64,000 bases of DNA from Gemmatimonadota bacterium (GTDB lineage Bacteria; Gemmatimonadota; Gemmatimonadetes; Gemmatimonadales; GWC2-71-9): the NCBI GenBank assembly GCA_036679645.1, contig JAZDCY010000016.1, forward strand, positions 37,377 through 101,376, read 5' to 3'. Below the pieces are notes generated by a model. That model was given only the letters and a program-made list of their open reading frames with translations. It did not search any database and was not told the DNA's origin. Positions within the stretch are counted from its first letter, which is position 1, and each line of letters begins with the position of its first letter. This document shows positions 1,667 to 17,294 of the stretch, in pieces. A program made the position numbers and the translations under genes.

Positions 1667-1667
1667 G

Positions 1668-1718
1668 TCACACGATAGCCATCGCGTCGCCGTAGTTGTA
1701 GAGGCGATATCGCTGAGC
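1668..1718. repeat. Left att-like direct repeat: displaced copy of the queA 3' end
   Basis: tcacacgatagccatcgcgtcgccgtagTtgtagaggcgatatcgctgagc matches 17466-17516 at 50/51 positions (1696 T vs 17494 C). Similarity continues to 1725 with third-position changes. Confidence 0.93.
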
Positions 1719-1727
1719 GACCGCCAT
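1668..1727 (-). CDS. Putative 19-aa mini-ORF (MAVAQRYRLYNYGDAMAIV) formed from the displaced queA tail, coupled to tgt
   Basis: ATG at 1727 is in frame with TGA at 1670-1668, one base before the tgt ATG. Weak SD-like AGGT 9 nt upstream. Translation is unproven. Confidence 0.45.
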   Translation of the reverse strand: MAVAQRYRLYNYGDAMAIV

Positions 1728-1743
1728 GACCGCCCAACCTGCG

Positions 1744-1966
1744 GTTTCAATCCACGCCCGCGCGCGAGCGGGCGACCTGGGTCTTCGCGTGTGTCTACAC
1801 GCTGATGTTTCAATCCACGCCCGCGCGCGAGCGGGCGACCTCGACATTCTGAGCAACGCACTAACGACGTTTCAATCCACGCCCGCGCGCGAGCGGGCGA
1901 CTCGGACATGGCGCGCGTCGTCGATGTCCTCGCGTTTCAATCCACGCCCGCGCGCGAGCGGGCGAC
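1744..1966 (-). CRISPR. CRISPR array with 4 identical 33-bp repeats (GTCGCCCGCTCGCGCGCGGGCGTGGATTGAAAC) and 3 spacers
   Basis: Repeats at 1744-1776, 1807-1839, 1869-1901 and 1934-1966; spacers of 30, 29 and 32 nt. 7-bp stem CGCCCGC/GCGGGCG and 11-nt 3' tag ending ATTGAAAC, typical of I-C repeats. Confidence 0.98.
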
Positions 1967-2148
1967 TGACTACTGCTAACTCTTTGTAGTTGAATGGCTT
2001 CAAAAGCCGGTCGCGCGAACCGGCTCCGGGTGAGCAAGGTTGGGCTACTATCGGCGCGAGTGCAAACGGTCAAGCAGTTGTCAAAGAGCGCGTTAGCCGT
2101 GGTCGCGAACCCCAGGCGAAAGATGCACCAGCTAGAGGTTCGCGGCTA
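1967..2148 (-). promoter_or_regulatory. CRISPR leader
   Basis: Lies between cas2 and the first repeat, relatively AT-rich next to the repeat, with several CGCGAACC/GGTTCGCG motifs like those of I-C leaders. Confidence 0.7.
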
Positions 2149-2439
2149 TCAAATAATCAGCGGTCCCTCCAGATCGACGCTCGGCTTCGCGCCGTGATGC
2201 TCCACCCGATGACGCCAATTCCTTCCCAGGAAGTAGAACCGCAGGCTGTCTTCCTCAGGTCGATAGAGATCGAGCAGACGCAGTTTGAACTGCGCCCACT
2301 GTGTCGGGTCGAGCTGGCACTCGAATACCGAGTTCTGCACCCGTTGGCCAAAGCCGACGCAGGTCTTCGCGACGTGCCTGAGGCGTTTGCGGCCCTCCCG
2401 GGTTGTCGTCGCTACGTCGTACGTCACCAAGACAAACAC
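2149..2439 (-). CDS. cas2: CRISPR-associated endoribonuclease Cas2
   Basis: [30 protein letters not shown]; I-C-like sequence. Confidence 0.97.
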
Positions 2440-2454
2440 AATGGCGTCCTCCGG

Positions 2455-3486
2455 TTACTTCCACACGAACGCCGGATAGGCATCGAGATCGCCGCGGAGT
2501 AGCCGCGCCAGGAGCCGCGCCTGCAGGTGGATCAACAACCCTACCGTGGTTTGCTCGCCCAGGAAGGGGTGTGTGATCTCATCCTGCTTGCGCTTCTGAT
2601 ACGCGATCAGAACCGTCTTTCGCGTGTCCTCGGACATCTCGACTCCACCGGATTCCGTCTTGCGGAAGCCCTTCGCGTGGACCTGCTGGCGGTTGATGAG
2701 CGTGAGGGCGAGCCGATCCGCCAGGAACGGTCGGAACTCCTCGATGAGATCGAGCGCGAGTCCGGGTCGGCCTGGACGGTCGCGGTGGAGGAAACCGACC
2801 TGGCTGTCCAGCCCGGCCGCCTCACAGGCGGCTCGCGCATCGTGCCCGAGCATGGCGTACAGGAACGAGAGCAGCGCGTTGACCGGATCCAGCGGCGGCC
2901 GGCGGTTGCGCCCGGTAAACGCAAAGCCGTCGGGCTGCCCAGTGATCAGGTGGCCGAACACGGCGAAATAGATGCTGGCGCTCTCCCCCTCGATCCCGCG
3001 AATCAGGTCGAGCCGGTCCGCCGCCTGGACCTGTTGGATGGTGTGGGCCAGACGCGCCGCCGCCGCCTGCACAGCCGCCCGACCTTGGCCCTCTGGATAG
3101 TCTCGAACGCTCCGGAGCAGCACGGTCCGTGCGTTCGCGACCTTCGCAGTAACGAGATTCCGCGCAATGACGGCGCTCCGAGACTCGTCGTCGGCGCGGC
3201 GGTACTGCTCGCGACGCAGCAGGACGTTGCCGGGTGTGAAACCGAGCACGCGGGCAAGGAACTTCCCCTGCTCGCTCAGGAACGAGATGGCGATACCCCG
3301 TTCGGCGCACGCGTGCATTAGCCACGGGCTGATGTTGACGAGACCGAAACACACGATCCCGCCGAGCGTGTGGAGCGGCAGCTGAAGGCGGGTCTCCTCC
3401 CCGAGTTTTACCTGGAGTGCCTCCCCGTACTTCGAGACGTACGCGCCTTGCGTCGTCACGAACAGGGTATTCAGGTGCTGCTTCAC
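2455..3486 (-). CDS. cas1: CRISPR-associated endonuclease Cas1 (I-C type)
   Basis: LNTLFVTTQGAY, IRGIEGESA, RNRRPPLDPVNALLSF, GFLHRDRPGRPGLALDLIEEFR. Confidence 0.98.
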   Translation of the reverse strand: MKQHLNTLFVTTQGAYVSKYGEALQVKLGEETRLQLPLHTLGGIVCFGLVNISPWLMHACAERGIAISFLSEQGKFLARVLGFTPGNVLLRREQYRRADDESRSAVIARNLVTAKVANARTVLLRSVRDYPEGQGRAAVQAAAARLAHTIQQVQAADRLDLIRGIEGESASIYFAVFGHLITGQPDGFAFTGRNRRPPLDPVNALLSFLYAMLGHDARAACEAAGLDSQVGFLHRDRPGRPGLALDLIEEFRPFLADRLALTLINRQQVHAKGFRKTESGGVEMSEDTRKTVLIAYQKRKQDEITHPFLGEQTTVGLLIHLQARLLARLLRGDLDAYPAFVWK

Positions 3487-4169
3487 GGTGTCGCGCCTTT
3501 TGCCTCATCGAGCGTGACGCCGACGGCGCGGGCGAGGTAACGGGCCGCCGAGCCGCGGGCGCGCCCCATAGCATCGGGGAGGCATATGTGGAGCAGGGAG
3601 CAGCGGTCGCATTTGGGCTCGCGTCGCGCCCGCGGCGTGCGGCGCGACGTGATGAGTTCGTGCAGGCGCGCGGCCGTTCCCTCGGTCAGGCGTCTGAGCG
3701 GAGCGTCAAAGGTCACGTCATGGCGCTTCCGCGTGCGGCCGTAGTACAGGGCCCCAGCCGGAACCTCGGTGTGCAGCATGTCTTCGAGGCACAGCGCTTG
3801 GGCACACAGTTGCACCTTGTCTGCCTCGTGGCGCTTGGGACGGCCGCGTTTGTACTCGACGGGGAACACAATCTGGCTGTCGCCAGCCGCGCGGAACTCG
3901 ACTATGTCTGCCTTGCCCACGAGGCCCAACCGGGTCGATCGAAGCGCCAGGCCCCGCGTGACGCGAACGCCCGACCGGGTCTCGGGCCGGCCGTCGTGCG
4001 CCTTGTCGTGCATATGACGCCCCTCGACGGTCAGGCGGTTCTCGGCCCAGAGGCCCTCGATGTGGATCAGGGCGCACTGCCGCTCGCAGAAGAGCAGGTG
4101 TTGGAGGGCGGAGATGGGGAGGAGGTCGTCCTCGGTGAAGCCTGCTTCCGCCCCACCCACAGGGGTCAC
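3483..4169 (-). CDS. cas4: CRISPR-associated protein Cas4
   Basis: ISALQHLLFCERQ, GKADIVEF, PVEYKRG, QLCAQALCLE, CDRCSLLHIC (Fe-S Cys cluster). Confidence 0.97.
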   Translation of the reverse strand: MTPVGGAEAGFTEDDLLPISALQHLLFCERQCALIHIEGLWAENRLTVEGRHMHDKAHDGRPETRSGVRVTRGLALRSTRLGLVGKADIVEFRAAGDSQIVFPVEYKRGRPKRHEADKVQLCAQALCLEDMLHTEVPAGALYYGRTRKRHDVTFDAPLRRLTEGTAARLHELITSRRTPRARREPKCDRCSLLHICLPDAMGRARGSAARYLARAVGVTLDEAKGATP

Positions 4170-4579
4170 GGACGGACTTCTCCAGGCAACTCCGCGAGAA
4201 TCGCGTCGTTGAGACGCCGTGCCAGTGCCAGCGCCGCGCGCGGCTCATCCGGAGCCGGCTCGGCGGGCTCTCCCGGGTAGCGGAACTTCCAGGCGTAGTC
4301 GGTAAGGCCTCCGCTCTCGCGGATCACCTGCTCGAGGTCCGGCGCGATCTCAAGCACCTGGCGCCCCAGATCGGCAATGTTGTGCGTCTTCCGAAAGATG
4401 CGTCCGTGCCACGTGAGGAAGCCTTTGAGCGCCTTCTCGGCAGCCTGCTGGCAATGGAACAGGGCGTCTCCCGCAAGTGGCGGTTCGACGTTGCTGATGA
4501 GCTCCGCGGCGCGCAGGTCGTTCGCCGCCTTGATCAGCCATGCGCGGGTCTCGGCAACGAACTCGGGATCAAGCGGCAT
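4166..4579 (-). CDS. HEPN domain protein (COG2250-like)
   Basis: AWLIKAANDL, FHCQQAAEKALKG, KTHNI, KFRYP. Start MPLDP at 4579 overlaps the MNT stop; its own stop overlaps the cas4 start (GTGA). Confidence 0.88.
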   Translation of the reverse strand: MPLDPEFVAETRAWLIKAANDLRAAELISNVEPPLAGDALFHCQQAAEKALKGFLTWHGRIFRKTHNIADLGRQVLEIAPDLEQVIRESGGLTDYAWKFRYPGEPAEPAPDEPRAALALARRLNDAILAELPGEVRP

Positions 4580-4925
4580 GGAGCAGCTTCCCTTCGCGCA
4601 AGACGGTCGCTGGGAGAGAGGCGGGTACGCGTGTGCGGCGATCGAACGCGGTGCTGGTCCACACGATGACATCCGCCGCTGTCCCGATCCCCCACAGCGC
4701 TTCGTGGGCCAGCCGGGTGCCCCGCCGGTCCGGTGTAGCGTCGTCGGGCACGATCACCATGAGATCGTAGTCGCTGTCCGCGTCGGCGTCGCCGCGGGCT
4801 TTGGAGCCGAATAGGTAGACGCGCTCCGGGTCGTATGCGTCCACGAGGCGGCGGACGATCTCGGCAAGCGCCGGATCGCGGTCTGGGAGCTGGCCCGTGG
4901 GCCTTCCCTGAGACTCAGGCATCAT
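4569..4925 (-). CDS. Minimal nucleotidyltransferase (MNT) domain protein
   Basis: VYLFGSKARGDADADSDYDL (GSx10DxD) motif; directly upstream of the HEPN gene. Confidence 0.9.
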   Translation of the reverse strand: MMPESQGRPTGQLPDRDPALAEIVRRLVDAYDPERVYLFGSKARGDADADSDYDLMVIVPDDATPDRRGTRLAHEALWGIGTAADVIVWTSTAFDRRTRVPASLPATVLREGKLLHAA

Positions 4926-4981
4926 GAACGATCATCTTGCCGGAAGGCACGCGATAGTTGACCAGGCGTACTCGGAAGCAC

Positions 4982-7127
4982 TCACACTACCCATGCGCTC
5001 GTGTCCTTCTGGCTCAGCAAGTGTTCCTGCCGCAGGACGCCAGCCATGTAACCGAGAAAGTCGGCCTGGTACTCCAAATCGCCCAGGCCGTATAGCCCCA
5101 GGCCCCGATCGTAGCGGTCGGTGTGAAGCTTATCAAGCCCGAGGTCGATGATCCGCCCAGGCCACATCTGGACACTGTAGGTCAACAATTCCGTCGGTGA
5201 GATTTTCTTTCTGTTCCGCACTGCCTGTGCCAGGCCTGCATCTACAATGACTGTCGCCGTCTGCTGCGGGATAACGCGGCAGAGGTGCGCGACTCCCCGT
5301 CGGCAGTGGCCGTGGGCATATGGTCGGTACTCCATGCGGTTCTCATCCTCGATCAGTTTGCGCGCTTGGTCCTCAGCGCCAGCCGTCCATTCCTTCCGCA
5401 TGGCTTCCGTCGCGAGCCAGGTTGTTCCCAGCTCGGGATCGTTGAGTTGGCTCCTACTGATGCGGTGGAGTGCTCGCCGAGGCACCTCGAAGGCAGGATT
5501 TCGTCGGAAGCGGGCGTCGCGGAGTCGAAGGTCCCAGACCTCCACCTCCTCCGCGTACTCGCCACCCCGGTTGACTCGACCGCCGACCTGAATCAGGCTG
5601 GCGGTGGACGCCGATTCCCGGAAGCCGGTACGGAACGACAAGTCCATCCCGGCTTCTACACAACTGGTTGCCACAAGGACCCAGTCATCGATCTTCCCTT
5701 CCTGCAGGCGAAGCTTCATCCGCTTCACAACCAAGTCCCGATGAGCGGGCGCAAGAGCAGTCGAAAGATGTAGCACGTCGTGGCCGGCTAGGCGCATCGC
5801 TCGTGCAACTACCGCGGCCGTCTGCACGGTGTTGACGACGAGTAACCGCGGACCAGGCTTCTCCGACACGAACTTCAGAAGTCCGTCCAGGTCAAGAGCC
5901 GGCTCCAGTTCATCCTGATCGGCTTCATTCTGGCCCGCTTTGGTAATCCTGCGCTCCACGCGGACGCGCCGACCTTCCGCTCGTCGGAGCTCGTCCCTGA
6001 GCTGTCTGTTGCCTACGAGATCCGGCACGGGCGGCATTCGCTTCTCGGATCCCGTTCGGATCAGCTCCCGGTACTCGGGAAGCTCCCAAAACCGCGGCAG
6101 CGAGCCGCTAGCGAGTACAAGGTGCCCACCCCAGTCGTCTGTCCACGTCTCCAGCCATCGCCACACCTGTGGCCAGAGGTGCGAGGGCATAGCCGCGTGC
6201 ATCTCGTCCACGAAGACGGCCGATCCTGGCAACTCGTGCAGCTTTCGCAACCGGGCTGGATGATGGCTGCCCAGGGTTTCGAAGAATTGCACCGCAGTCG
6301 TGACAATGATTGGCGCCTTCCACAGCGTTGCGAGTTGTCGCAGCTCCAAGTCCTCGAAGTCGGCCCGGTGGTGATGCTCGGCGACCACGTCTTCCGGGCG
6401 CTCACCCTCCAGCACCAATGCCTTGCGGTACACGTCCACAGACTGTGTGATGATGTTCGTGTACGGCAGGACGACAACGATGTGGCGCAACTGAGGTTTT
6501 CCTTCGGTCGCCACGCGCAGGAGGTGGGCCATTACTGCCGTCGTCTTGCCGCTCCCCACCGGAGCATCGCAGGCACGGATCGCTGGCTCAATCGCGGCAT
6601 CCCGGCAGGCTTCAAACACCCGTCGGCGCGCTTCATTCCGCTGCTGTTCTCGTGGTTTCTTTCCCTTCGGTAACCCGTCGACGTACCGCTGCAGTGCCGC
6701 CGCGCGCTCATCCCATCGGGTCTCGATGCCCGGCGTCTCGACCTCACCGCCATAGTGCCGTGCCGTGTCACCATGGTCAGCGTCTACGAGGCACGATAGG
6801 GCCAATCGACGGGTAAAGCCGCACGGCTGCAATGCCTTCGGTTTAGCCTTCGGTAACTCCGGACAGCCAGCCGAACGGTGGAGATTCCGATACCCGTCGA
6901 GTCGGCCTTTCGCATCGACGTGGTCCGCTACAACAAGACCACCTGGGGTCTCGCGCCTTAACTGGCGGAACGGTCGCCCCTGTGGTTCAAGGAAATCCTC
7001 CTTCAGACTGAACAGCCCGGCATGATGAGCGGCGACTAACGCTACCGATTCCTGCCAGTTAAGGCGATCCAGTTCGGCCACGCCTGCGTCCTCATGCGCA
7101 ATCACTAACCGTTTGCGTGAACTCTGC
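4982..7127 (-). pseudogene. cas3: cas3, 3' part (distal HD motifs plus SF2 helicase), IS-interrupted
   Basis: IAHED, AAHHAG, LVDADH, APVGSGKT (Walker A), FVDEMH (DExH), LSTAL, QVGGRVNR. Joins the 5' part in frame once the IS is removed. Confidence 0.93.
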
Positions 7128-7266
7128 TGCGGATTTCGGACCCATTCGGACACCTGTTTCGGAATCATCCGGACACCCATTTCGGTTTTATCCGGACACC
7201 TGTTTCGGAGCCATCCGGACACCCATTTCGGACATTCGGACACCTGTTTCGGAGATGTCGGACACC
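7128..7266 (+). repeat. IS21 left-end subterminal repeats
   Basis: CGGACACC core at 7147, 7170, 7193, 7216, 7237 and 7259 (21-23 bp spacing), mostly followed by (TG/CA)TTTCGG. Confidence 0.9.
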
Positions 7267-7334
7267 TTCGCTGAGGGAGTGGGCGCTGGATAACTGAGGC
7301 GGATTCGGTCTCACTTCAGGGACTTTTCCCCGGA

Positions 7335-8990
7335 GTGATGCTGATGCCCGCTCGGAGGTTGTCCATGCGCAAGATCGTAGACCTGCTGCGGTTGCAGGCG
7401 GAGGGGCTGAGTGTGCGGCAGGTGGCCGACAGCTTGGGCCTGCCGCGCAGCACCGTGGCCGACTACATGGGCCGGCTGAAGCGGGCCGGGCTGACGTGGC
7501 CGCTGCCGGATGAGGCGGACGAAGCGGAGCTTCTCGAGCGGCTGTTCGGCGCCGAGCGCTCTCGGGCTGGTGAGCGGCCGATGCCGGACTGGGCGACGGT
7601 GCATGCCGAGCGCAAGCGACCGGGTGTGACCCTGCACCTGCTGTGGCTGGAGTACAAGCAGGTCCATCCCGAGGGGTATCAGTACACTCAGTTTTGTGAG
7701 TACTACAAGCGCTGGCGTGCGCGGCTCGATCCCGTTTTACGGCAGGCCTACAAGGCGGGAGAGAAGGTGTTTGTCGACTACGCCGGTCAGACCATGCCCG
7801 TCGTCGACGGCGAGACCGGCGAGGTGCGGCAGGCGCAGATCTTCGTCGGGACCCTAGGAGCGAGCAACTACATCTATGCCGAGGCCACGTGGACGCAGCG
7901 CCTGCCCGATTGGACGGCCGCGCACGTGCGGATGTACGAGGCATTCGGAGGTGTCCCGGCCCTGACGGTGCCCGACAATCTGAAAACAGGCGTACGGCAC
8001 GCCTGCTACTACGAGCCGGATCTCAATCCCACATATCAGGACCTGGCCACGCACTACGGGACGGCGGTGCTGCCGACGCGGGCGGCCAAGCCCCGGGATA
8101 AGGCCAAAGTGGAGACCGGCGTGCAACTGGTGGAGCGCTGGTGCCTGGCCCCACTCAGGAACCACACCTTCTTCAGCCTCGCCGAGTTGAATTGCGAGCT
8201 GCGGACGCATCTCGACACCCTCAACGAGCGACCGTTTCAAAAACTGCCCGGTACCAGACGGCAGCTCCTCGAGACGCTGGAGCGGCCGGCCTTGAAACCC
8301 TTGCCGCCGACGCCCTTCGAATACGCCGAGTGGAAGAAGGCCCGCGTCAACATCGACTACCACGTCCAGGTCGATAGCCATCTCTACAGCGTCCCCTACA
8401 TGCTCGTGCGTCAGGAAGTGGACGTGCGCCTCACGGCGAAGACGGTAGAGGTGTTGCACCGCGGCAAACGCGTCGCGGCCCACCGGCGTAGTCATCGTCC
8501 GGGCCGCTTCACTACCGAGCCGGGCCACCGTCCCAAATCCCACCAGCGGCATCTCGAGTGGACGCCATCGCGGCTGATACGCTGGGGAGCCACGCTGGGG
8601 CAGCACACCGGCGAACTCGTTGCACACATCCTCGAGAGCAGACCCCATCCCGAGCAGGGATACCGCGCCTGCCTCGGCCTCCTCAGTCTCGCGCGCAAGT
8701 ACGGCCCGGAGCGAGTCGAAGCCGCGTGCACGCGCGCCCTGCGCACTCGGGCAACGACCTATCGATCCGTGAAATCGATCCTCGAACATGCACTCGATCG
8801 TCTGCCGTCCGAGGAGGAGCAGATCACCCTGTCGCTTCCCGCCGACCACGCCCATGTGCGCGGGTCGACCTATTACGCCACGCTCACTACAGCAAACCAT
8901 CGACCGCATGCACGAACTGCGATTGACGGGCATGGCCCAAGCCCTCGACGAACAACGGGGCCAACCCGATCTGCACGACCTCGCCTTTGA
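7335..8990 (+). CDS. istA: IS21 transposase IstA
   Basis: HTH start, GEKVFVDYAG, VPDNLKTGV, PRDKAKVETGV (DDE). Start may be 7338 or 7365; the C-terminus reads past the usual stop position. Confidence 0.93.
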   Translation: MMLMPARRLSMRKIVDLLRLQAEGLSVRQVADSLGLPRSTVADYMGRLKRAGLTWPLPDEADEAELLERLFGAERSRAGERPMPDWATVHAERKRPGVTLHLLWLEYKQVHPEGYQYTQFCEYYKRWRARLDPVLRQAYKAGEKVFVDYAGQTMPVVDGETGEVRQAQIFVGTLGASNYIYAEATWTQRLPDWTAAHVRMYEAFGGVPALTVPDNLKTGVRHACYYEPDLNPTYQDLATHYGTAVLPTRAAKPRDKAKVETGVQLVERWCLAPLRNHTFFSLAELNCELRTHLDTLNERPFQKLPGTRRQLLETLERPALKPLPPTPFEYAEWKKARVNIDYHVQVDSHLYSVPYMLVRQEVDVRLTAKTVEVLHRGKRVAAHRRSHRPGRFTTEPGHRPKSHQRHLEWTPSRLIRWGATLGQHTGELVAHILESRPHPEQGYRACLGLLSLARKYGPERVEAACTRALRTRATTYRSVKSILEHALDRLPSEEEQITLSLPADHAHVRGSTYYATLTTANHRPHARTAIDGHGPSPRRTTGPTRSARPRL

Positions 8991-9654
8991 GGACCGGCTC
9001 GCCCTGCTCGTGGAACGCGAAGCCACCGCCCGGGCCGATCGCAGATTGACCCGGCTGCTGCAGCTCGCAAAGCTGCGTCTCCAGGCGAGCGTCGAAGAAC
9101 TCGACTTCAAGACCCCTCGTGGACTCGATCGCTCGGTCATGTTACGGCTCGCTGGCTGCGACTGGATCCGCCAGCATCAGGTCGCCCTGCTCATCGGAGC
9201 CACGGGCACGGGCAAGACCTTCATCTCCTGTGCCCTCGGCCACAGTGCCTGTCGACAGGGACTGCGGGTGCGCTACGTCCGGCTGCCTCGTCTCTTGCAC
9301 GACCTGGCGCTCGCCCAGGCCGACGGCTCCTACGGCAAACTCTTGACCGCCTTAGCGAAGACAGAACTCTTAATAATCGACGACTGGGGCCTGGCACCGC
9401 TCGGTGATCGCGAACGCCGTGACGTGCTCGAAGTCATCGAAGATCGCTACGGCCGCCGGGCCACGATCGTGACCAGCCAGCTCCCCGTCGAGCACTGGCA
9501 CGAACTCATAGGGGACCCCACCTTTGGGGACGCGATCCTCGACCGCCTCGTGCACGGTGCACATCGGATCACGCTGAAAGGCCGGTCGATGCGCCGCAAG
9601 GAAACGACCAAGAAGGAAACGAAGAAGAAACCGACAACGAAAGAAGGAAACTAG
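8908..9654 (+). CDS. istB: IS21 AAA+ helper ATPase IstB
   Basis: GATGTGKT (Walker A), LLIIDDWG (Walker B), TSQLP, AILDRLVH. The first in-frame ATG after the istA overlap is 8908. Confidence 0.93.
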   Translation: MHELRLTGMAQALDEQRGQPDLHDLAFEDRLALLVEREATARADRRLTRLLQLAKLRLQASVEELDFKTPRGLDRSVMLRLAGCDWIRQHQVALLIGATGTGKTFISCALGHSACRQGLRVRYVRLPRLLHDLALAQADGSYGKLLTALAKTELLIIDDWGLAPLGDRERRDVLEVIEDRYGRRATIVTSQLPVEHWHELIGDPTFGDAILDRLVHGAHRITLKGRSMRRKETTKKETKKKPTTKEGN

Positions 9655-9677
9655 GCCAGCACCCACACCTCGGTGTC

Positions 9678-9772
9678 GGTGTCCGACATCAGCCGAACGG
9701 ACTGTCCGACTTCAACCGAACCAGGTGTCCGACATCAACCGAACTGGGTGTCCGGATGCACCGAAATCCGCA
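9678..9772 (-). repeat. IS21 right-end subterminal repeats
   Basis: GGTGTCCG at 9678, 9724 and 9747, plus a degenerate copy near 9701 (23-bp spacing), inverted relative to the left-end units. Confidence 0.85.
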
Positions 9773-9999
9773 CTCTGCCGAAGTACCGCCTGATTAGCCT
9801 CGTCCAGTTTGCCGAGGTCGTGGTACAGCGCCGCCGCATCGACCCAGCCAATGAAGGCTTCCTGGTCACCGGCGTAAAACGCGACGGCGCGCTGAGCATT
9901 ACCCACCGTATCGCGACGGACATTGGTGACGTGCGCGACGTACGTCTGTGCCGACACGCCATCCCGCCGGCTATGTGCTAGAGGCGGATCGCTCGACAT
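9773..9999 (-). pseudogene. cas3: cas3, 5' part (proximal HD nuclease motifs)
   Basis: MSSDPPLAHS...YVAHV...AALYHDLGKLDEANQAVLRQS, then the IS right end. Confidence 0.92.
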
Positions 10000-10009
10000 C
10001 GCCGCTGCC

Positions 10010-11017
10010 TTACAGGAGCTGGCTGCACCACTCCGGCAGTTCGACACACAGGTCATACAGCTTGGCGTTCCTCAGGACGCCGTGGAAGTCATTCGGCAGC
10101 GCCCTGGGCACATCGTACTGATCGGTGAGTGGAACTTGGTCCGTTGACGGCGGCATTCTCTCGTCGTCCCTGGGTTCCCACTTCCGTTTCGGGGTGAGCT
10201 TCTCGATGAATTCGAATTCCGAGAATGAGCCGAGGCTGTATTCGCTGCCTGGCTCGTTCTCGTGCTCGGCGTACCAAGCATGGCGAACGTCAACCATGCC
10301 ACGTGGCGCGGACCGAGTATGCGGGTACGCGTAGCGGATCAGGCCCAACATGAGCGCGATGTCTTTCGCAGTACAGCCACTGTTCCTGGCGGCCGTCGGG
10401 TTGACAAAGAAGGGCATGCAGTAGACACCGTGCTCGACGATTCGACTTGCCAGCGGCGCCATGCCGCGATCCTTCGACTCCTGAGCGCTAGCCTTCTTTG
10501 TGAGGGTGTCCCGAAGCACTCGCACCGGAGCGGCCGATACGCCGATCGGAAAATGCGCGACGCCAGTGCGGATGTACTTGCGGTCACCAGCGGTGCTGCG
10601 CCTCCCGCCCTCAGGTGCGTCCTCGCCCTTCTCAAGAAAGGTGGCTCCGAAGGTGCGAGCGTCCCAGTACTTGTTCGCCACCTTGTTGGGGTCCTCATCG
10701 ATGAGTTCAACGACTCTCTTCCAGGCTTCGGCGGCTTCCTTGACGTCAGCGAAGCCGCGCTCACGGGATTCGAGAATGGAGAACTCATCGTCATTCAACC
10801 GAAACTGACTCTTCAAGTGCTGCCAGACGTCGCCATCCTTCTGCTCTACCAGATCCCGCATCTTGCGCTTGAAAGACACCCCCGTGATGTATCCACGTCC
10901 GTCGTGATTTCGCTGGCGCGGGTCGCTCTCGCGATCCGGGTCGCCGTTGGGGTTCGAATTCCGCACCTCGATAACCAGCAGGCCGGTGGCTCGGGCAATA
11001 CCGTGCTTCGCGTTCAT
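10010..11017 (-). CDS. cas7: Cas7 (Csd2/I-C family, divergent)
   Basis: EVRNSNPNGDPD, ITGVSFKRKMRD, YWDARTFG. Confidence 0.93.
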   Translation of the reverse strand: MNAKHGIARATGLLVIEVRNSNPNGDPDRESDPRQRNHDGRGYITGVSFKRKMRDLVEQKDGDVWQHLKSQFRLNDDEFSILESRERGFADVKEAAEAWKRVVELIDEDPNKVANKYWDARTFGATFLEKGEDAPEGGRRSTAGDRKYIRTGVAHFPIGVSAAPVRVLRDTLTKKASAQESKDRGMAPLASRIVEHGVYCMPFFVNPTAARNSGCTAKDIALMLGLIRYAYPHTRSAPRGMVDVRHAWYAEHENEPGSEYSLGSFSEFEFIEKLTPKRKWEPRDDERMPPSTDQVPLTDQYDVPRALPNDFHGVLRNAKLYDLCVELPEWCSQLL

Positions 11018-11436
11018 TGCGTACTGTCCTTCCCGTTTTGGCCATGTTTCTCATCCGGCGGTGAGGCGAGGAACCCGAGAAGGAGCTGGGCCTTCGCTAC
11101 GTCGTCTACCTCGATCGGCAGGTCGGCGGCGCCGAGTGTGGCCGCGAGCGGCTGGTACTGCCGCAGCTTCTTCCTAGCCTCATTGACGGCGATCCGTTGC
11201 TGCTCCCTTTCCTCGCCCTGTGGCGTCTGGGCCGTCTTCGCCCACCGCACGTACTCCATCATTCGTTCGCCGAGGTCGGCAACCGCGGCCGCGGGGTTGT
11301 CCAGGGCTCGGCGCATCAGGGACGTGCCGATCAGGGAATTGGGCAACTGGCCCTTGCGAACAACGGTGCAGTAGTCCTTGTGCAGTGTGTCGGCCAGCGC
11401 CAGGACCTGGCCAACCTGGTACGGCGCATTCTTCAT
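11014..11436 (-). CDS. cas11: Internally translated small subunit Cas11c (140 aa)
   Basis: AAAGGAG SD 6 nt before an in-frame ATG (MKNAPYQVGQ) in the cas8c 3' part. Internal Cas11 translation is established for I-C systems. Confidence 0.75.
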   Translation of the reverse strand: MKNAPYQVGQVLALADTLHKDYCTVVRKGQLPNSLIGTSLMRRALDNPAAAVADLGERMMEYVRWAKTAQTPQGEEREQQRIAVNEARKKLRQYQPLAATLGAADLPIEVDDVAKAQLLLGFLASPPDEKHGQNGKDSTQ

Positions 11437-13227
11437 GTACTGCTCCTTTCGATGGCCGAGGGCGTCGAGCAGGATCGCGGAAACGGCTACCGCCCGCAGT
11501 GCTACCTCGTCTGAGAACCGTGCGTAGTCAGGTCGTGCTCTGTGCTTCTTCTGAGCCCTCAGGGGTCCGTAGGCGTGCTGGGCGCCGAAGACGCCGATCA
11601 ACAGCGGCGTGAGACGCCGGACAAGCATCCTCAGCATCGACCGCGCTGCTGGCTCCCCCTTGCCCTCTGTTCCAAGCATCACGTCGAGCACCTCGCCGAG
11701 CCCCGGCCCGACGACCGCCGCCGACTCGCTGCCACCACGCGCCCACTGATGCGACAGCAGCCGCACCACTTGGTCCGGATACGGTGGGAACGGCTGACCC
11801 TCGCCTGCCTCCAGTTTCTTCCCGTTTCGCGTCTCTTCAGGCAACCACAGCCGCACCTGCGGGGCATTTCGCTTCACCGCCTCAACCCACTTCTGAGCCG
11901 CGTCCAGCACTTGCTGAACGGTTGGTGATTCGGCTAAGACGACCTGAGCTTGTCCCTTTGACATCTCCCTGATCACGAATAGCTGAAGGCGTGACTTCGG
12001 GTGTTGCCTCGCAACCCCCTTCAACGCTCGGACCAGAGCGGCGGCATCGACTTCGAATCGTTGTTCGTCCACACCCATTCCGCCACCGATGTATCGTGCG
12101 GTGTTGGCGTCAAGAGCAGGAGAGTCTTCGACGTAGGCGATAAGTACGTCCGGCTTCTCGACCTGCTGGCCCCCTGCCGATTCGAACCGGCTGCTCCCGA
12201 CGAACTCCCAGGTCTGGCCTTGGCGAGAATCAGCGGTGATGAACTCGAGTGCTTCCTTCAAACAGTCAGCGCGGGCCTTGGCAATGGTGCAGCGAGCTGC
12301 GCTGAACATCGAGGAAAGCGGAAAGCGCTTTCGTCCGATCTTTTGCTTCCTCATGGAATAGACAGGAAGGTCGATCTTTGGAAGCGTTTCCCGCTCGAGG
12401 GCGGCCGCTTCACCAGTGAGCGCATCGATACCAACCGTCGCGCTGTCCTTCTGGGTGTGCGAGTGCTTCCACGTTGGCTCGCGTGGCAGATGCTCCCTCA
12501 GCAAGTTGCCAATCCTCTCGCTGTAGAGAGGATGACTGAACAGATTGGGGTCGCTCACGTCAAATGCCAGTTGGACGGTCATCGTTGGGCGGCGGCCGTT
12601 TTCATCGGGCGGGCCTTTTCCTACGAGCAGCTGTTCGACCTGGTCGATGGCGGAGAGCGTTCCTTGCTTGAGCCCTGCAAGGGCGACCTCGCCGATGCTG
12701 GAAAGTAGCGTGTCGGGTTGCTGCGCCGCGATCACAAAGCGTTTGCCAAGTGCTGCAACGACCTGGCCCTGGTCGTTCATCTGTTGAGCGCACTTCACCA
12801 GTTCGTTGGCCTTGCGGTCTCGGAGTCGGACCCACAGGTCCTGCGTCCTTTTGGACCAGAGACACACGGATCCCTTCTGTGACGCTTCCTCCAGAGTCGT
12901 GACACGCCGAGCATCATCCAGAGTTCTACGCCGTCTCTGATGCTTGTCGAAGCCAAGCTCTTGCCAGACATCGGCAGAGACCTCCGAGAGTGGCTGCTGC
13001 ACGCGAACGACGGGAAAGCTGTTCTGGTTACCTTCCATCACAGTCCACGACGGCCAGTCCTCGTGCGTTACTTCTTCAATCGCCACTACTTTGCCTTGAC
13101 TGTTCAGCCTGACGCGCAGGCATGGCGCTGAGCGACCGGGTTCTGGAACGCGCCTATGCTTCCGTTCTAGCCGAAGCGAGGGTGTTCTTTCCAGCGCCTG
13201 CCAGAGCCGCCATGTCTCATTGAGCAC
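11014..13227 (-). CDS. cas8c: Cas8c-like large subunit (divergent)
   Basis: 737 aa between cas5 and cas7, MLNE start, C-terminal NAPYQVGQVLALADTLHKDYC helical region. Call rests partly on position. Confidence 0.8.
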   Translation of the reverse strand: MLNETWRLWQALERTPSLRLERKHRRVPEPGRSAPCLRVRLNSQGKVVAIEEVTHEDWPSWTVMEGNQNSFPVVRVQQPLSEVSADVWQELGFDKHQRRRRTLDDARRVTTLEEASQKGSVCLWSKRTQDLWVRLRDRKANELVKCAQQMNDQGQVVAALGKRFVIAAQQPDTLLSSIGEVALAGLKQGTLSAIDQVEQLLVGKGPPDENGRRPTMTVQLAFDVSDPNLFSHPLYSERIGNLLREHLPREPTWKHSHTQKDSATVGIDALTGEAAALERETLPKIDLPVYSMRKQKIGRKRFPLSSMFSAARCTIAKARADCLKEALEFITADSRQGQTWEFVGSSRFESAGGQQVEKPDVLIAYVEDSPALDANTARYIGGGMGVDEQRFEVDAAALVRALKGVARQHPKSRLQLFVIREMSKGQAQVVLAESPTVQQVLDAAQKWVEAVKRNAPQVRLWLPEETRNGKKLEAGEGQPFPPYPDQVVRLLSHQWARGGSESAAVVGPGLGEVLDVMLGTEGKGEPAARSMLRMLVRRLTPLLIGVFGAQHAYGPLRAQKKHRARPDYARFSDEVALRAVAVSAILLDALGHRKEQYMKNAPYQVGQVLALADTLHKDYCTVVRKGQLPNSLIGTSLMRRALDNPAAAVADLGERMMEYVRWAKTAQTPQGEEREQQRIAVNEARKKLRQYQPLAATLGAADLPIEVDDVAKAQLLLGFLASPPDEKHGQNGKDSTQ

Positions 13228-13900
13228 GGTGTACCTCCGGCGGCGTCGGGTGCTCGTAGGACATCACCCCGTTGACGATGCTCCAGTTCTGCTTAAAGGC
13301 GGGGTTCAGTTGACGGCGCTCCCACATCGAATGCAACAGAGATGGTATGATGTCGTTGATGCTCGCCTCCGGTGCGGTGCCTTCGCGGAACGTGCCGAAG
13401 TAAGTGGGGACGAACTCCTTCCATCCCAGACAAGGCGTGTAGAACGTCTGTCCGTGTGTCAAACGCTTCTCAAAAAGTCGCTTCAGCTCTGGTGCCCAGT
13501 CCTTTCCACGGCGGCGCCTCAACTGGGGACGGTCCTTTCCAACGGTGCTGCGCTTGACGCGCATCACACCATAGATGCGGTAGCAGACGTCCACGAGAAT
13601 AGTCGCGTTGAGCTGGTAATTGTTGTTCCTCCTGATTTGGTCCTGCTTACGAAGGGGGCCACCGTAGTTGGTCACGTAGCGCTCGTATCTGATCGGGCAG
13701 CAGATTTCTACACGGGTCGGGTGGATGTACGCGTGGGGCCGCCAAACCACTGCGTCAAACATTCCCCTGGCCGCCGAATACGTGGGCACTGGATACGAAA
13801 TCGGCGTTGCCCCGGTATCGGGCCGCGTGAACATTGCCGCCGGGCCAGCGACCTCAAGTTGGACTACGTATTGAGTGTCGCTCCGGGACGGGTTCGGCAC
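13217..13900 (-). CDS. cas5: Cas5 (I-C-like, divergent)
   Basis: LEVAGPAAMFTRPD, SYPVPTYSAARGMF, ILVDVCYRI, PCLGWKEF; AGGAG SD before GTG 13900. Confidence 0.92.
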   Translation of the reverse strand: MPNPSRSDTQYVVQLEVAGPAAMFTRPDTGATPISYPVPTYSAARGMFDAVVWRPHAYIHPTRVEICCPIRYERYVTNYGGPLRKQDQIRRNNNYQLNATILVDVCYRIYGVMRVKRSTVGKDRPQLRRRRGKDWAPELKRLFEKRLTHGQTFYTPCLGWKEFVPTYFGTFREGTAPEASINDIIPSLLHSMWERRQLNPAFKQNWSIVNGVMSYEHPTPPEVHRAQ

Positions 13901-14143
13901 AGTGTCTCCTCGCTCCCTCCGAGACGGTGTAGCTCTCTTACGGTACCATCACTCCTGTCTCCTGGCGGAGTCGAGTACGCCACCCCGCGGATCGCCTTTC
14001 CGGCCCGTCCTGCGCCCGCACAGGGTCGCGTGCCCACGCCGCCTCCGTATTGACATTCCGCACGTCCCTCCTACCGCTACCTGCCTCCCACCCACTCACG
14101 CCTGGAGTCGTATCATGCATCGCTCTGCTACCGCCTCGCGGCC

Positions 14144-14497
14144 TCAGGTCTCTTCAGTGGGCTCCGACAACAGCGCGCCCGTCCGCTCGACCAGGCCGGG
14201 GAGTTCATCGCTGATGACCTGCCAGACAATCTCGTGGTCCAGCATGTCGTATCCGTGAACCAGGATGTTACGAAAGGCCACGATGCGGTCTACCTCACCG
14301 GCCCGCGCTGCGATCTCGGGAGTCATTCGATGTAGCCGGTTCATCGCTTCGCCGATGATCTGGAGGTTGCGCTCCACCGCCTGACGCACCAGCCGGTTCT
14401 CCAGATACTCGGCCAGCGACGACTGCGCCGTGGCCTCGAGGACAAACGAGCCGGCGTCGCGGACGTCTTCCAAGAGCTTCAGCGCCTCAGGCTGCAT
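14144..14497 (-). CDS. HepT-like RNase toxin (DUF86/HEPN)
   Basis: AVERNLQIIGEA and the Rx4H motif FRNILVHGY; start MQPE overlaps the MNT stop by 11 nt. Confidence 0.9.
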   Translation of the reverse strand: MQPEALKLLEDVRDAGSFVLEATAQSSLAEYLENRLVRQAVERNLQIIGEAMNRLHRMTPEIAARAGEVDRIVAFRNILVHGYDMLDHEIVWQVISDELPGLVERTGALLSEPTEET

Positions 14498-14795
14498 ACA
14501 ACTCCTGGCGGCTCCGCTCGACTGCCGCAATGAAGTACGGGTTTCTCAACGACCGGCGCGTGAGGAGATCGACGTCCCGGGCAAGAAGTTCCCGGAGCCC
14601 GTCCCAGAGACCGAAGTATTGATCCGCCAGCGTCATCTCCCCGGTATGCTGGAACTCCACCAGGAGATCCAGATCACTGTGGTCGGGGTCGAACGCGCCA
14701 GTGGTCGCCGAGCCGAATACGTCGAGCCGAGAAACGTGGTAGCTGCGGCAGAGCTGCTGGATGGCCGCCTGGTTCTGCTCAAGCAATGATATCAT
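14487..14795 (-). CDS. MNT antitoxin (MntA-like)
   Basis: LDVFGSATTGAFDPDHSDLDLLVEF, DVDLLT, LRNPYF. Confidence 0.9.
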   Translation of the reverse strand: MISLLEQNQAAIQQLCRSYHVSRLDVFGSATTGAFDPDHSDLDLLVEFQHTGEMTLADQYFGLWDGLRELLARDVDLLTRRSLRNPYFIAAVERSRQELYAA

Positions 14796-15182
14796 CTGCT
14801 CTTGCCTCGCAGCTGTGGGACACCCGCCCCGAGCGGACCCGAAGAGACACCGAAGCGCCGACCTTGGCAAGGTGTCTCATTCCGCCCCCTACGCGAGTTG
14901 GCAACACCGTCACGAGCGTGCCAATACGGCGCTGCATCCAAGGCGCTCTCCCTAATTTCCCCTCCCGCCGCTCCCGCCCCACCACGCCCCGCGCCCTCCG
15001 CCGCTCGGTGTCCTCCAGGGATTCGTAGGCGTAGTTGTTGAGAAAGCTCTCCAACAGCTCGAGCTCCACCCGTGCACGTCGCGCAACTGCCGGATGGTCG
15101 GATCCGCGATCGTCGCTGTAGCGCCGGCGCGCCGTCTACCAACTGCCATCGGGATCTCCCTCCGTCGTTTCCGCCGACCTAA

Positions 15183-15415
15183 CATCCCTCGACGGTCATC
15201 ATTCCACTCACCACCAATCCGACAGACGATGCGGAGCCTCTCCGCGTGCGTGCCCCCCCGGCGGACGATTGCGCGGGGACCCCGATCTGCTGATCGACCA
15301 GCTCCGAGCCATCGACAACCGCCGCCGGATACGAGGCCCGCTCACCCGCCTCGACGGCGCCCTCATGCGGCGTGTCGGATTGGCCATCCGTGAGGTCGTC
15401 GATCTGGTCGAGTAG
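15183..15415 (+). pseudogene. MazF/PemK-family toxin remnant (frameshifted, 5'-truncated)
   Basis: Frame A from 15183 reads HPSTVIIPLTTNPTDDAEPLRVR. After a shift at the C7 run (15253-15259) the frame reads GGRLRGDPDLLIDQLRAIDNRRRIRGPLTRL...AIREVVDLVE*. In-frame TAA at 15180. Not in the ORF track. Confidence 0.75.
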
Positions 15416-15494
15416 CGCCCGTTGCCGATGCAGCGACGGACCGCCAGCCCAACTCCACACAAGATCACCCCCCCTGTGACACTCCACCCGCGAA

Positions 15495-16262
15495 TCAAGC
15501 CACCCCGAGCGGATCCACAGGCACAACCTGCCCCACGCTATCCAGATGCCACCGGCCCCCCTCCGCCAGTAACGTGCACCAGAGGTCCCAGCCCCTCTCC
15601 AGCAGCGCGCCGGCCCGCACCGGCACCTTGATCGGGCCGTAAAGAGCCGGCTCCTGATACCGCGGCCGCAGCCACAGCAGCCCGGGCTCGATCCGTGTTA
15701 CCTCAAAACAGGTATGCTCCGCGTCGGCGTCGAGGTCCCACACCGGAGCGCGCCCGCGGCACGCGCGAGCCAGTCGTTTCTTAGCCCGCTCGGCCCGGAG
15801 CAGTTTGCCCTGAAGACGGCGGGCCAGCCGCGCTATGTCGGCCGCCACTGTTGCATCCACGTACCCCTCGTCCGCTAACCACAGCGCAAACTGCTCCAGC
15901 TCCGGTAGCAGCTCGGGCGTCTGCCTCAAGTGAAGCAGCATGGTGTCGCCCAGCCATGAGATCACAAACTCCCGCAGCACCGTCGGCAGGTGTTCGCGGC
16001 CGACGCTCTCGCCGCGCGACGCCCGTGCATCCCCTGGTTGCCTCGTGGGGTGCCGCGCGTGTATCTGATGCTCGCCGCAACTCGGCTGCTCCAGTCCGGG
16101 ATCGGCGTCGTGCAGATAGATAGAGAGCGCAGCACAGAGCTGGGTCGCATCGCGGCCCTGTCCAGAGGCCGCCAGCTCATACGCGGCGCCGATTTCGTCG
16201 ATCGTGGGCGATGCCCCCTCCGGGACCGGAGGCTGAGCGACGCCGCGATTCCAATACATCAC
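15495..16262 (-). CDS. Hypothetical protein
   Basis: 255-aa ORF with a protein-like C-terminal beta region (FEVTRIEPGLLWL...GPIKVP...GRWHLDSVGQVVP); family not recognised. Confidence 0.65.
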   Translation of the reverse strand: MMYWNRGVAQPPVPEGASPTIDEIGAAYELAASGQGRDATQLCAALSIYLHDADPGLEQPSCGEHQIHARHPTRQPGDARASRGESVGREHLPTVLREFVISWLGDTMLLHLRQTPELLPELEQFALWLADEGYVDATVAADIARLARRLQGKLLRAERAKKRLARACRGRAPVWDLDADAEHTCFEVTRIEPGLLWLRPRYQEPALYGPIKVPVRAGALLERGWDLWCTLLAEGGRWHLDSVGQVVPVDPLGVA

Positions 16263-16292
16263 GATTCCCTGTCTTGCTCCTGCACGAGGGCC

Positions 16293-17294
16293 CTAATGGT
16301 CCGCCCGGCCTCCGCTCGCACGCCCCTCCTCAACCAGCTTGATCCGCCGTTCCCGAGGCCCGAACGCCGCCGGGAACCGCACCACCCGATCGTACAGCGG
16401 CGCCCGCCGCATCATGTGCTCGTCGTCCGCCGGCGCGTCTGGCCCCCAGCTCTCGGCTTCCGATGGCCATTCCTCGATGAGCCCCATCGAGGCGAGCGGG
16501 ATCAGGAAGCCGAGTTCCACCGTGGTGCCAACCAACCAGGGTGGGACGTCCTGCACGTCCCTCGTCCACGGAGGCGAGAGCATGAGGCCCAGCTCGGCGG
16601 GAATCCACCAGTTCCCGTCCACCTGTCCGAGACCCCACATCTCGTAGGCCTCGCCGCCCTGGTGCATCACTGGCCCTTCAGGGAGCGGAAGCAGCAGCGT
16701 GTCCCGCACGTTTGCGTTGCGGAACAGCGCGCGGAGCAGCCGCGTGTAGAGGGATCCTGCGCCTTCGGGCGTGGCCAACCGCCGGCCCAGTGGGGTCAGC
16801 TCGTAGCTCCCAGTGCGCACCCGCAGACAGCCGAGATAGCGGGCCGTCTCCCGCATCTGCGTAACCGGCAACCACTCCTCGCCGCGCATCCAGGGGGGCT
16901 CCTCGTCGTCCTCCAGCAAGTCGGCATCCTCCGGTCCTGGCGGCGGGGCGCTGCGCGACCAGAGGCGCTCGCCGAGGGTGGAGGCGAAGTGGCCCTCGAA
17001 CGTCCCATCGCGCCGCGCCGGTACGCGGCCCGCGTCGGCCAGGGCCAGGAGCAGCTCGCGCAAGTCGGCGAAGTAGCTCGCATCCCCCAGCTCGTCCAAC
17101 CGCACGTTGCGGTTCAGCCGCAGCGGTCCCCGCGTGTACCAGTCGCCGGCCAGCAACTTGCGGACCTCGGACGGCGACAGGCCGAACAGATCGGGACGCC
17201 GCGCGTAATCCTCGGCGTCCACCGCGGGATGGGAGCCGAGCTGCTCGAGTAACAGGCGGCTGTCGCGCGCTTGGGACGGGAAGGCGTGGCGCAT
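16293..17294 (-). CDS. Hypothetical protein
   Basis: ~333-aa ORF (start MRHAF assumed) with a wHTH-like YELTPLGRRL segment; family not recognised. Confidence 0.65.
   Translation of the reverse strand: MRHAFPSQARDSRLLLEQLGSHPAVDAEDYARRPDLFGLSPSEVRKLLAGDWYTRGPLRLNRNVRLDELGDASYFADLRELLLALADAGRVPARRDGTFEGHFASTLGERLWSRSAPPPGPEDADLLEDDEEPPWMRGEEWLPVTQMRETARYLGCLRVRTGSYELTPLGRRLATPEGAGSLYTRLLRALFRNANVRDTLLLPLPEGPVMHQGGEAYEMWGLGQVDGNWWIPAELGLMLSPPWTRDVQDVPPWLVGTTVELGFLIPLASMGLIEEWPSEAESWGPDAPADDEHMMRRAPLYDRVVRFPAAFGPRERRIKLVEEGRASGGRADH

Follow-up and report, generated by a model that had tools for sequence, protein, structure and literature searches.

Directly upstream of cas4 in a type I-C operon of a Gemmatimonadota bacterium, a gene for a minimal nucleotidyltransferase (MNT) is followed by one for a HEPN-domain protein. 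Comparison of related loci indicates that this MNT-HEPN pair is a recurrent fellow-traveller of the spacer-acquisition genes of CRISPR systems, and not a one-off. The operon lies in the 64,000-nucleotide (nt) stretch that we analyzed (assembly GCA_036679645.1, contig JAZDCY010000016.1, positions 37,377 to 101,376), the whole of which we call the window. We consider it moderately probable that the pair is a toxin-antitoxin-type cassette whose MNT would nucleotidylylate a tyrosine of the HEPN protein, and which would persist for itself while stabilizing or guarding the cas4-cas1-cas2 block and the island that carries it. The module class itself has already been described; what is new here is its wiring to cas4, its co-inheritance with the adaptation block and the repeats of the cas4 5′ end. 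A literature search of incomplete coverage found no paper on a class II HEPN/MNT lineage linked to cas4.

Position and inheritance of the pair

On the minus strand the genes run in the order cas5, cas8c, cas7, cas3, MNT, HEPN, cas4, cas1, cas2 and CRISPR array. A first-pass annotation of this DNA had described an 11-nt MNT/HEPN overlap, a GTGA overlap of HEPN with cas4 and an overlap of cas4 with cas1, and all three can be read directly. The end of MNT (...CTG CTC CAT GCC GCT TGA) contains the start of HEPN (ATG CCG CTT GAT), the shared 11 nt being ATGCCGCTTGA (4569–4579); HEPN ends ...CGT CCG TGA where cas4 starts GTG ACC, sharing GTGA (4166–4169); and cas4 ends ...CCG TGA where cas1 starts GTG AAG, again sharing GTGA (3483–3486). 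The HEPN start that gives a protein of 137 amino acids (aa) is backed by 35 aligned homologs, nearly all of 137 aa (136–143) and beginning MP.DPE, and the 11-nt MNT/HEPN overlap is family-wide. Because the pair is read on the strand of cas4 with little or no gap, translation of cas4 most likely follows that of HEPN. The host operon is of type I-C by its Cas8c, Cas5c, Cas7c, Cas3 and Cas4-Cas1-Cas2 proteins and by its I-C type repeat, which terminates in ATTGAAAC; its gene order (cas5-cas8-cas7-cas3) is a variant shared with locus L200. A promoter scan upstream of MNT returned a sole sigma-70-like site (5136–5108), inside cas3 and not above chance, in what is a non-model phylum.

Contexts of related pairs were examined in order of similarity, not of context. 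In the maximum-likelihood tree of MNT plus HEPN (our trees comprise 245 columns, and some of their branches are open), one clade of 14 pairs was recovered with support of 100/94, and 10 of these 14 loci carry the pair directly 5′ of cas4 or of a cas4/1 fusion (six I-C and four I-G loci), against 1 of 47 pairs outside the clade (L010). Among the closest relatives, with HEPN proteins 64–77% identical to that of the window, the same slot is occupied in 9 other intact loci and in 2 decayed ones. Loci L007, L008, L199 and L201 read cas7-MNT-HEPN-cas4-cas1(-cas2), and L200 (cas7-cas3-MNT-HEPN-cas4-cas1-cas2) has the window's architecture without its insertion sequence (IS) element; identity to the window is 38% for L200 Cas3 along its whole length, 44% for Cas7 and 34% for Cas8. 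In L009, L010, L202 and L204, which are type I-G or I-G-like, the pair directly precedes a Cas4/Cas1 fusion, and L010 carries the I-G markers (GSU0053/54 families and a Cas3 with a C-terminal HD domain). The HEPN/cas4 overlap is GTGA or ATGA in the window, L007, L010, L089, L199 and L200. Gaps 5′ of MNT vary from 21 to 516 nt, and the gene on that side is cas7, cas3 or, in I-G loci, a gene without a Pfam match. The first-pass annotation had placed the pair between cas3 and cas4; the slot is indeed recurrent, but what defines it is the position upstream of cas4, since the 5′ gene varies and a pair in L230, described below, follows cas6. Open reading frames (ORFs) called between csb2 and MNT in L009 and L010 are homologous neither to each other nor to the neighbor of the pair in L005 and are therefore probably spurious.

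Several members of the clade have lost intact neighbors or lack them. An intact pair precedes a degraded cas4/1 of 174 aa in L089, and the rearranged L205 (246–1516) has a decaying HEPN (E48V, H66R, Y95H), a second MNT gene, a cas1 fragment of 124 aa and cas2. A convergent I-E cas2 stands 0.9 kb away from the L203 pair, and no cas genes adjoin the pairs of L005, L116 and L207. A frameshifted 5′ remnant of an I-G cas4/1 (3967–4106; tblastn E = 3e-5) lies 42 nt past the HEPN stop of L207, so this pair came out of a cas4 context. The L207 setting is a toxin-antitoxin island with HicB, PIN and HTH genes, and the MNT of L207 forms the C-terminal portion of a larger protein of 316 aa. In three loci (L089, L205, L207), remnants of decayed cas4/cas1 stand next to a pair that is itself intact or decaying. 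Intact pairs beside decayed or absent cas4/cas1 (L089, L207) argue for autonomy and not for dependence on adaptation; autonomy is also favored by the stand-alone majority of the family, by the intact pair beside the IS-split cas3 of the window and by the second HEPN/MNT pair found there.

The converse survey started from cas4 and covered flanks of 1.5 kb. None of the 29 other cas4-cas1-cas2 loci in the window's phylum (401 genomes) has an MNT or HEPN gene within 1.5 kb upstream, and in the I-C loci among them cas7 abuts cas4; likewise, none of 30 cas4/1-fusion loci from Thermodesulfobacteriota carries the window's pair family. Among I-C and I-G loci, then, few carry the pair. It does not occur in most loci of a subtype, as a cas accessory gene would, and it is not an established one; the share of pairs near cas genes, by which a family is called CRISPR-associated, is 10/14 in the window's subclade (all ten directly 5′ of cas4 or cas4/1) and about 8/160 in the whole family. 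The first-pass annotation had also considered absence from nearly all homologous loci, and this holds for most I-C and I-G loci (0/29 and 0/30), yet 10 of the 14 closest relatives sit in the slot.

Other cassettes also occupy this slot. In the type I-G locus L230 of Thermodesulfobacteriota (775–1484), a different class II pair (PF01909, 41 bits; PF05168, 43 bits) lies between cas6 and the cas4/1 fusion with junctions of 16, −4 and 1 nt; its HEPN has Gly in place of the conserved His and shows no profile similarity to the window's family. Locus L238 (3109–4393) carries a VapBC-like pair, composed of a PIN toxin and a small upstream ORF, directly 5′ of the cas4/1 fusion, along with a further small ORF and a separate MNT gene 5′ of cas4/1. 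As judged from these gene contents, the slot draws toxin-antitoxin cassettes of more than one kind. In genome G503, csb2 adjoins cas4/1 with no insert. For the reference I-G locus of Geobacter sulfurreducens, GSU0051–GSU0054 and GSU0057–GSU0058 are listed (PMC8036902). This leaves two genes without an assignment, GSU0055 and GSU0056, in the slot ahead of cas4/cas1.

We compared the divergence of the pair with that of its neighbors. Among the window, L007 and L008, the proteins of MNT, HEPN, cas4, cas1 and cas2 are 70–88% identical and Cas7 is 23–25% identical; synonymous divergence (dS) is ~1 for all five genes, and the ratio of nonsynonymous to synonymous divergence (dN/dS) is 0.16–0.24 for the pair and 0.04–0.18 for the cas genes. 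The pair is under purifying selection, and its divergence is about equal to that of cas4-cas1-cas2. Given this similarity and the divergent Cas7, the pair travels with the adaptation block while effector modules swap. Shallow rates are similar as well (the tree path from the window to L008 is 0.38 for the pair and 0.35 for Cas1). Between I-C and I-G loci the pair path is ~0.7, and Cas1 is several-fold more diverged, at ~35% identity. Cas-linked loci share 57–79% Cas4+Cas1 identity, which excludes near-identical copies of one mobile element. The first-pass view of the pair as an integral operon member and not a passenger is thus borne out in part, by the same slot in 9 other intact and 2 decayed loci, by purifying selection and by shared divergence, but it does not extend to the intact pairs beside decayed or absent cas4/cas1.

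Pair-bearing loci fall in four branches of the Cas1 tree, each beside pair-less relatives: two of type I-C (the window with L007, L008 and L199; L200 with L201) and two of type I-G (L009 with L010 and L202; L204). These trees are most simply read as transfer of the cassette from one adaptation module to another, or as repeated loss, after the I-C/I-G split. Co-divergence of the pair with Cas4+Cas1 gave a Mantel r of 0.48 (p = 0.003), with r of 0.2–0.3 within each subtype; this signal comes mainly from the I-C versus I-G split and is compatible with inheritance as well as with transfer. When the six cas4-adjacent pairs that were found first were constrained to a clade of their own, the topology was rejected (approximately unbiased (AU) test, p = 0.0009). 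A clade also holding L005 and L116 was not rejected (AU p = 0.23), and a single capture with later escapes is therefore possible on the pair tree alone.

Three I-C loci retain fragments of the cas4 5′ end on the left of the cassette, where cas4 begins in the pair-less relative L170. In L201, a segment 58 nt 5′ of MNT is identical at 61 of 66 nt (92%) to nt 39–104 of the locus's own cas4 (1573–1638 and 2517–2583), encodes SESDLLPLSALQHLVFCERQC and scores 56 against a shuffle maximum of 14. An older copy of the cas4 5′ end is found in L200 (~3991–4060; 48/68 nt; score 25, with shuffles reaching at most 15). L199 was read against L170 as the empty site (Cas7 64% identical): its cas7 frame runs into AVAFAGHDL-SALQR and a stop (~6020–6071), which is a decayed cas4 start in the original position, and there follow a 219-nt gap, the pair and a full cas4. 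These scars put the cassette inside a stretch in which the cas4 5′ end is directly duplicated. In the 56-nt spacer of the window, only 11–14 nt of cas4-like resemblance were found at the expected place, not above shuffles. L204 was also set against its pair-less Cas1 relative L197 as an occupied and an empty site and was discarded as such, the homology lying only within cas4/1 and the upstream genes being unrelated. Between such repeats the cassette could be deleted precisely, and homologous recombination could in principle put an excised circle back; loss and re-insertion of this sort might account for the pair-less loci interspersed in the trees as well as for the constancy of the slot.

The two proteins and their family

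Class II HEPN/MNT modules are defined by PF05168 and PF01909 proteins, a retained GSx10DxD motif, no RX4HXY motif and a conserved tyrosine (Yao et al., 2020; PMC7641770); Anantharaman et al. (2013) call the group HEPN-T (PMC3710099). By sequence, the pair of the window is a class II module: it matches PF05168 (cut-off 22 bits), it matches PF01909 (cut-off 21 bits) with GSx10DxD, and it combines the lack of RX4HXY with a conserved tyrosine. The MNT motif GS-x10-DxD corresponds to G40 S41 ... D52-x-D54, joined by D85, and the catalytic residues are invariant across the family. The PF05168 match covers HEPN residues 12–124, and the conserved HEPN motif is F-R63-K64-T65-H66 together with R100-Y101-P102. 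Across 148 family members D21, H42, Q45, E48, R100 and P102 are invariant, H66 is conserved at 99%, K52 and Y101 at 98–99%, T65 at 95%, R63 and K64 at 93% and Y95 at 89%. The first-pass remark that this HEPN lacks a clear Rx4-6H ribonuclease (RNase) motif was right in substance: a literal R60-x5-H66 exists, but R60 is present in 60 of the 148 members (41%), and the window HEPN has no R-x4-H-x-Y.

An AlphaFold2 model of HEPN from 36 homologs (predicted local distance difference test, pLDDT, 89) is a five-helix bundle of HEPN fold. Its closest PDB structures are 1WOL, sacsin 3O10, 4NQF, 2HSB and 1O3U (template-modeling (TM) score 0.63–0.75), its TM score to HepT toxin structures is ~0.5, and the HEPN profile matches 1ufb and 1wol. 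Class II structures on record are Thermus TT1696 (1UFB), Sulfolobus ST0689 (1WOL), AF_0298 (2HSB) and TM0613 (1O3U) (PMC7641770; PMC3710099). Like these modules, the window has MNT first and overlapping, the GSx10DxD motif, no RX4HXY, a C-terminal R-Y-P tyrosine and the helical HEPN fold. Published descriptions, however, present class II modules as stand-alone and mostly thermophile or archaeal, whereas the window's lineage has a fixed place directly 5′ of cas4 or cas4/1 and is co-read with it.

We also considered whether the pair could be a type VII HepT/MntA (class I) system. This was rejected, as there is no DUF86 or HepT_toxin match, RX4HXY is absent and the MntA score is below cut-off (NF047752, 35.4 bits against 60); no match to the window HEPN was found among DUF86/HepT, NCBIfam and PADLOC models. 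Type VII systems share with the window an MNT upstream of HEPN and a tyrosine available for (oligo)AMPylation, and they serve as the model for the mechanism proposed below; they differ in a HEPN of the DUF86 family with RX4HXY, in the MntA profile that the window MNT matches below cut-off, and in fold (TM ~0.5). The second pair of the window (14144–14870) is type VII-like. PADLOC PDC-S09 models match the window MNT at 23–41 bits (best 40.8) and PDC-M05A matches it weakly, whereas its HEPN partner has no PADLOC match; PDC-M05 is a nucleotidyltransferase (NTase) plus HEPN whose antiviral role is unconfirmed (PMC12988326). Chains named 'Cmr1-MntA' in PDB entries 9z7q, 9z7v and 9z7x match residues 19–57 of the window MNT (E = 8e-4). 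They represent a solved MNT domain fused to a type III Cas protein, and the literature search, of incomplete coverage, returned no paper on them.

Homologs of the HEPN protein number 2409 across many phyla, most of them 137 aa long and 50–77% identical. We sampled the contexts of 80 loci from species-representative genomes and 80 from metagenomes, the latter often incomplete at contig ends. MNT lies directly upstream of HEPN with the same short overlap in all 160, tandem arrays of pairs amid other toxin-antitoxin genes are frequent, and cas genes are nearby at about 8 of the 160 (~5%). Cas-linked and free-living members do not differ in their catalytic-type residues. Among 60 relatives of the window genome the pair is almost wholly missing, and a plasmid search returned only distant Bacillus HEPN/MNT pairs (31–39% identity). 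At the family level, these contexts identify the pair as a mobile, stand-alone, toxin-antitoxin-like module.

Possible roles of the pair

If the pair works as type VII systems do, MNT would nucleotidylylate a conserved HEPN tyrosine (Y95 or Y101) and thereby keep HEPN inactive, and HEPN left free would halt growth; such a mechanism would be in keeping with the invariance of GSx10DxD and of the Tyr residues, and the presumed antitoxin, MNT, is also encoded at the window locus. The lineage, attached to the 5′ end of cas4-cas1-cas2 modules of types I-C and I-G, may then be a self-preserving or guard cassette that moves along with the adaptation block and the CRISPR island of 15.8 kb and perhaps stabilizes them, and we propose that it is not a catalytic part of spacer acquisition.

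Several points weigh against this reading. Class II HEPN/MNT modules have no biochemistry on record, and their toxin-antitoxin status is unvalidated according to the authors who defined them (PMC7641770); the canonical RNase arginine is not conserved in the HEPN family; and a covalently neutralized toxin gives no classical post-segregational addiction. Recombinational spread cannot explain the moves between I-C and I-G, since their cas4 5′ ends lack nucleotide homology, and neither the window nor the I-G loci show a recognizable remnant of the cas4 5′ end. The fidelity of the lineage to one slot in two subtypes and four Cas1 branches exceeds what a neutral passenger needs, some residues are fixed only in the clade (D-R-x-x-R-V-P at MNT 95–101; E6, F7, V75 and D94 of HEPN), and the unrelated cassettes in the slot of L230 and L238 could mean that a function is selected there.

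Some of these points lead to a second possibility, which we regard as doubtful, though deserving of attention: the pair could be a co-opted accessory or regulator of adaptation, acting through a self-regulated promoter and the dosage of Cas4 by translational coupling, or through HEPN-dependent growth arrest that buys time for acquisition or sets in when the adaptation genes are shut off. The same slot with tight junctions in 10 loci of two subtypes would fit such a role, as would the stop/start overlaps of HEPN with cas4 in most loci, the clade-specific residues and the other toxin-antitoxin cassettes in the slot; the pairs, moreover, form one clade, yet their loci lie in four Cas1 branches. 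The variable and sometimes long gaps 5′ of MNT (21–516 nt) leave room for a promoter of the pair's own, which would matter in the window because the IS21 element severs the block from the upstream cas promoter, but the scan found none above chance. A regulator of adaptation also sits poorly with the pairs that are intact where cas4/cas1 is decayed or absent (L089, L207, L005, L116), with catalytic-type residues that are the same as in stand-alone relatives and with the many I-C and I-G loci, the majority, that do without the pair.

It is rather unlikely, in our estimate, that the pair is a cas4-seeking excisable element, lost precisely or moved by recombination from within the duplicated cas4 5′ end, that entered I-C and I-G modules at least four times, each time immediately before cas4, and was retained as the head of the adaptation operon, where it would set Cas4-Cas1-Cas2 expression through a self-regulated promoter of its own or couple arrest to acquisition. 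On this account the cassettes of L230 and L238 would be convergent recruits to the same job.

A two-subunit nucleotidyltransferase with a catalytic MNT and a substrate-binding HEPN, modifying Cas4/Cas1 or the 3′ ends of prespacers, appears improbable. Its arrangement would be, as we take it, that of kanamycin nucleotidyltransferase or HI0073/HI0074. The model draws on the class II HEPN without an RNase motif (PMC7641770), on the Gly in place of the conserved His in the L230 pair of the same slot, on the MNT fused to a Cas protein in 'Cmr1-MntA' and on an older substrate-binding model of HEPN cited in PMC3710099; but H66, R100 and Y101 are near-invariant, which would suit residues of HEPN's own active site or of a site at which HEPN is modified, and the same residues are conserved in the stand-alone majority that has no Cas partner. 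Finally, a chance passenger, that is, a mobile cassette that landed once in a permissive seam of a defense island, is very improbable: the family is overwhelmingly stand-alone and mobile, defense islands gather toxin-antitoxin genes (PMC3632139) and the pair is absent from 59 sampled cas4 loci, but 10 of the 14 closest relatives sit in the exact slot against 1 of 47 others, the block has diverged with its neighbors to dS ~1, and the cas4 5′ remnants in three loci mark a specific insertion architecture.

Toxin-antitoxin genes in or near cas cassettes are a known theme (PMC3973734; PMC3632139; PMC3506569), and toxin-antitoxin pairs are interspersed between archaeal cas cassettes (Vestergaard, 2014; PMC3973734). 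These pairs, and the immunity-dormancy hypothesis (Makarova, 2012, 2013), resemble the window in a toxin-antitoxin module between interference and adaptation cassettes with a proposed stabilizing or dormancy role. In the window's case, by contrast, a single coherent bacterial lineage is inherited with cas4-cas1-cas2 across I-C and I-G, overlaps cas4 stop to start and is flanked by cas4 5′ duplicates (in L199, L200 and L201). CreTA, an RNA toxin-antitoxin that safeguards Cascade genes (PMC12737573), resembles the pair in the notion that a cas operon harbors a toxin-antitoxin element and cas loss thereby becomes costly; CreTA consists of RNAs under Cascade-dependent repression, whereas the window has two proteins, beside adaptation and not effector genes, with no Cas dependence seen. 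Toxin-antitoxin genes in CRISPR loci are usually dismissed as defense-island junk, and here the tie of one lineage to the cas4 5′ end persists through long divergence, in several phyla and in two CRISPR subtypes, with the duplicated cas4 5′ ends as an insertion scar. If the link is functional, the pair would be a protein counterpart of CreTA that guards or regulates acquisition genes, and it would allow a direct test of dormancy-adaptation coupling. If the link is only structural, a selfish cassette targets and rides a conserved gene, and operon membership with translational coupling would not alone make a cas gene. The lineage is a compact, well-defined system for the first class II HEPN/MNT biochemistry.

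The surrounding island

The stretch between tgt and queA (~1667–17465) is an inserted island of ~15.8 kb, and tgt directly follows queA in all five relatives where queA was found. Besides the array and the cas genes, it holds two HEPN/MNT pairs and two genes of no family match, the last being co-oriented ORFs of 255 and 367 aa at the queA end (15495–17396) without a Pfam or PADLOC match. Coordinates of the main features are collected in Table 1.

Table 1. Features of the CRISPR-cas locus in the window, with the profile matches on which they are based
Feature	Position	Strand	Basis
MNT, minimal nucleotidyltransferase, 118 aa	4569–4925	minus	PF01909 39 bits; PF18765 33 bits
HEPN protein, 137 aa, class II / HEPN-T type	4166–4579	minus	PF05168 62.1 bits
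Spacer, 56 nt, cas3 stop to MNT start	4926–4981	minus	
cas4	3483–4169	minus	PF01930 79.9 bits; TIGR00372 128.5 bits
cas1, type I-C (Cas1c)	2455–3486	minus	TIGR03640 499 bits (cut-off 385)
cas2	2149–2439	minus	PF09827 88.7 bits
CRISPR array, 4 identical 33-nt repeats (minus strand GTCGCCCGCTCGCGCGCGGGCGTGGATTGAAAC), 3 spacers	1744–1966	minus	
cas3, 3′ part: helicase and remaining HD domain	4982–7127	minus	PF22590; PF00270; TIGR01587
IS21-family element (istA, istB)	7128–9772	plus	PF22483; PF00665; IstB_IS21 255 bits
cas3, 5′ part, HD motif ...YHDLGK...	9773–9999	minus	
cas7	10010–11017	minus	PF05107 152 bits and PF09704 (for cas7, cas8c and cas5 as a group)
cas8c	11014–13227	minus	PADLOC Cas8c 449.7 bits; group matches as under cas7
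cas5	13217–13900	minus	PADLOC Cas5c 85 bits; group matches as under cas7
Second HEPN/MNT pair, class I-like	MntA 14487–14870; HepT 14144–14530	minus	

The cas3 gene upstream of the pair (start 9999, stop 4982) is interrupted and not intact, a point that the first-pass annotation had not mentioned. Its HD domain is split by an IS21 element of 2645 bp that has 23-nt multi-repeats at either end and has duplicated 6 bp of the target (CTCTGC); joining the flanks of the element as an empty site restores an uninterrupted 788-aa Cas3 with an N-terminal HD domain. Interference in the window genome is, on this gene structure, probably dead, whereas the Cascade and adaptation genes look intact. The array abuts the tgt start, and its only three spacers are 29–32 nt long. 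In the second pair, which lies on the cas strand just past cas5, HepT carries RNILVHGY; it scores 51 bits against HepT_toxin (NF047751) and its partner 29 bits against MntA, where the cut-off of 60 is reached by neither. Two HEPN/MNT modules, each of another class, thus enclose the effector genes.

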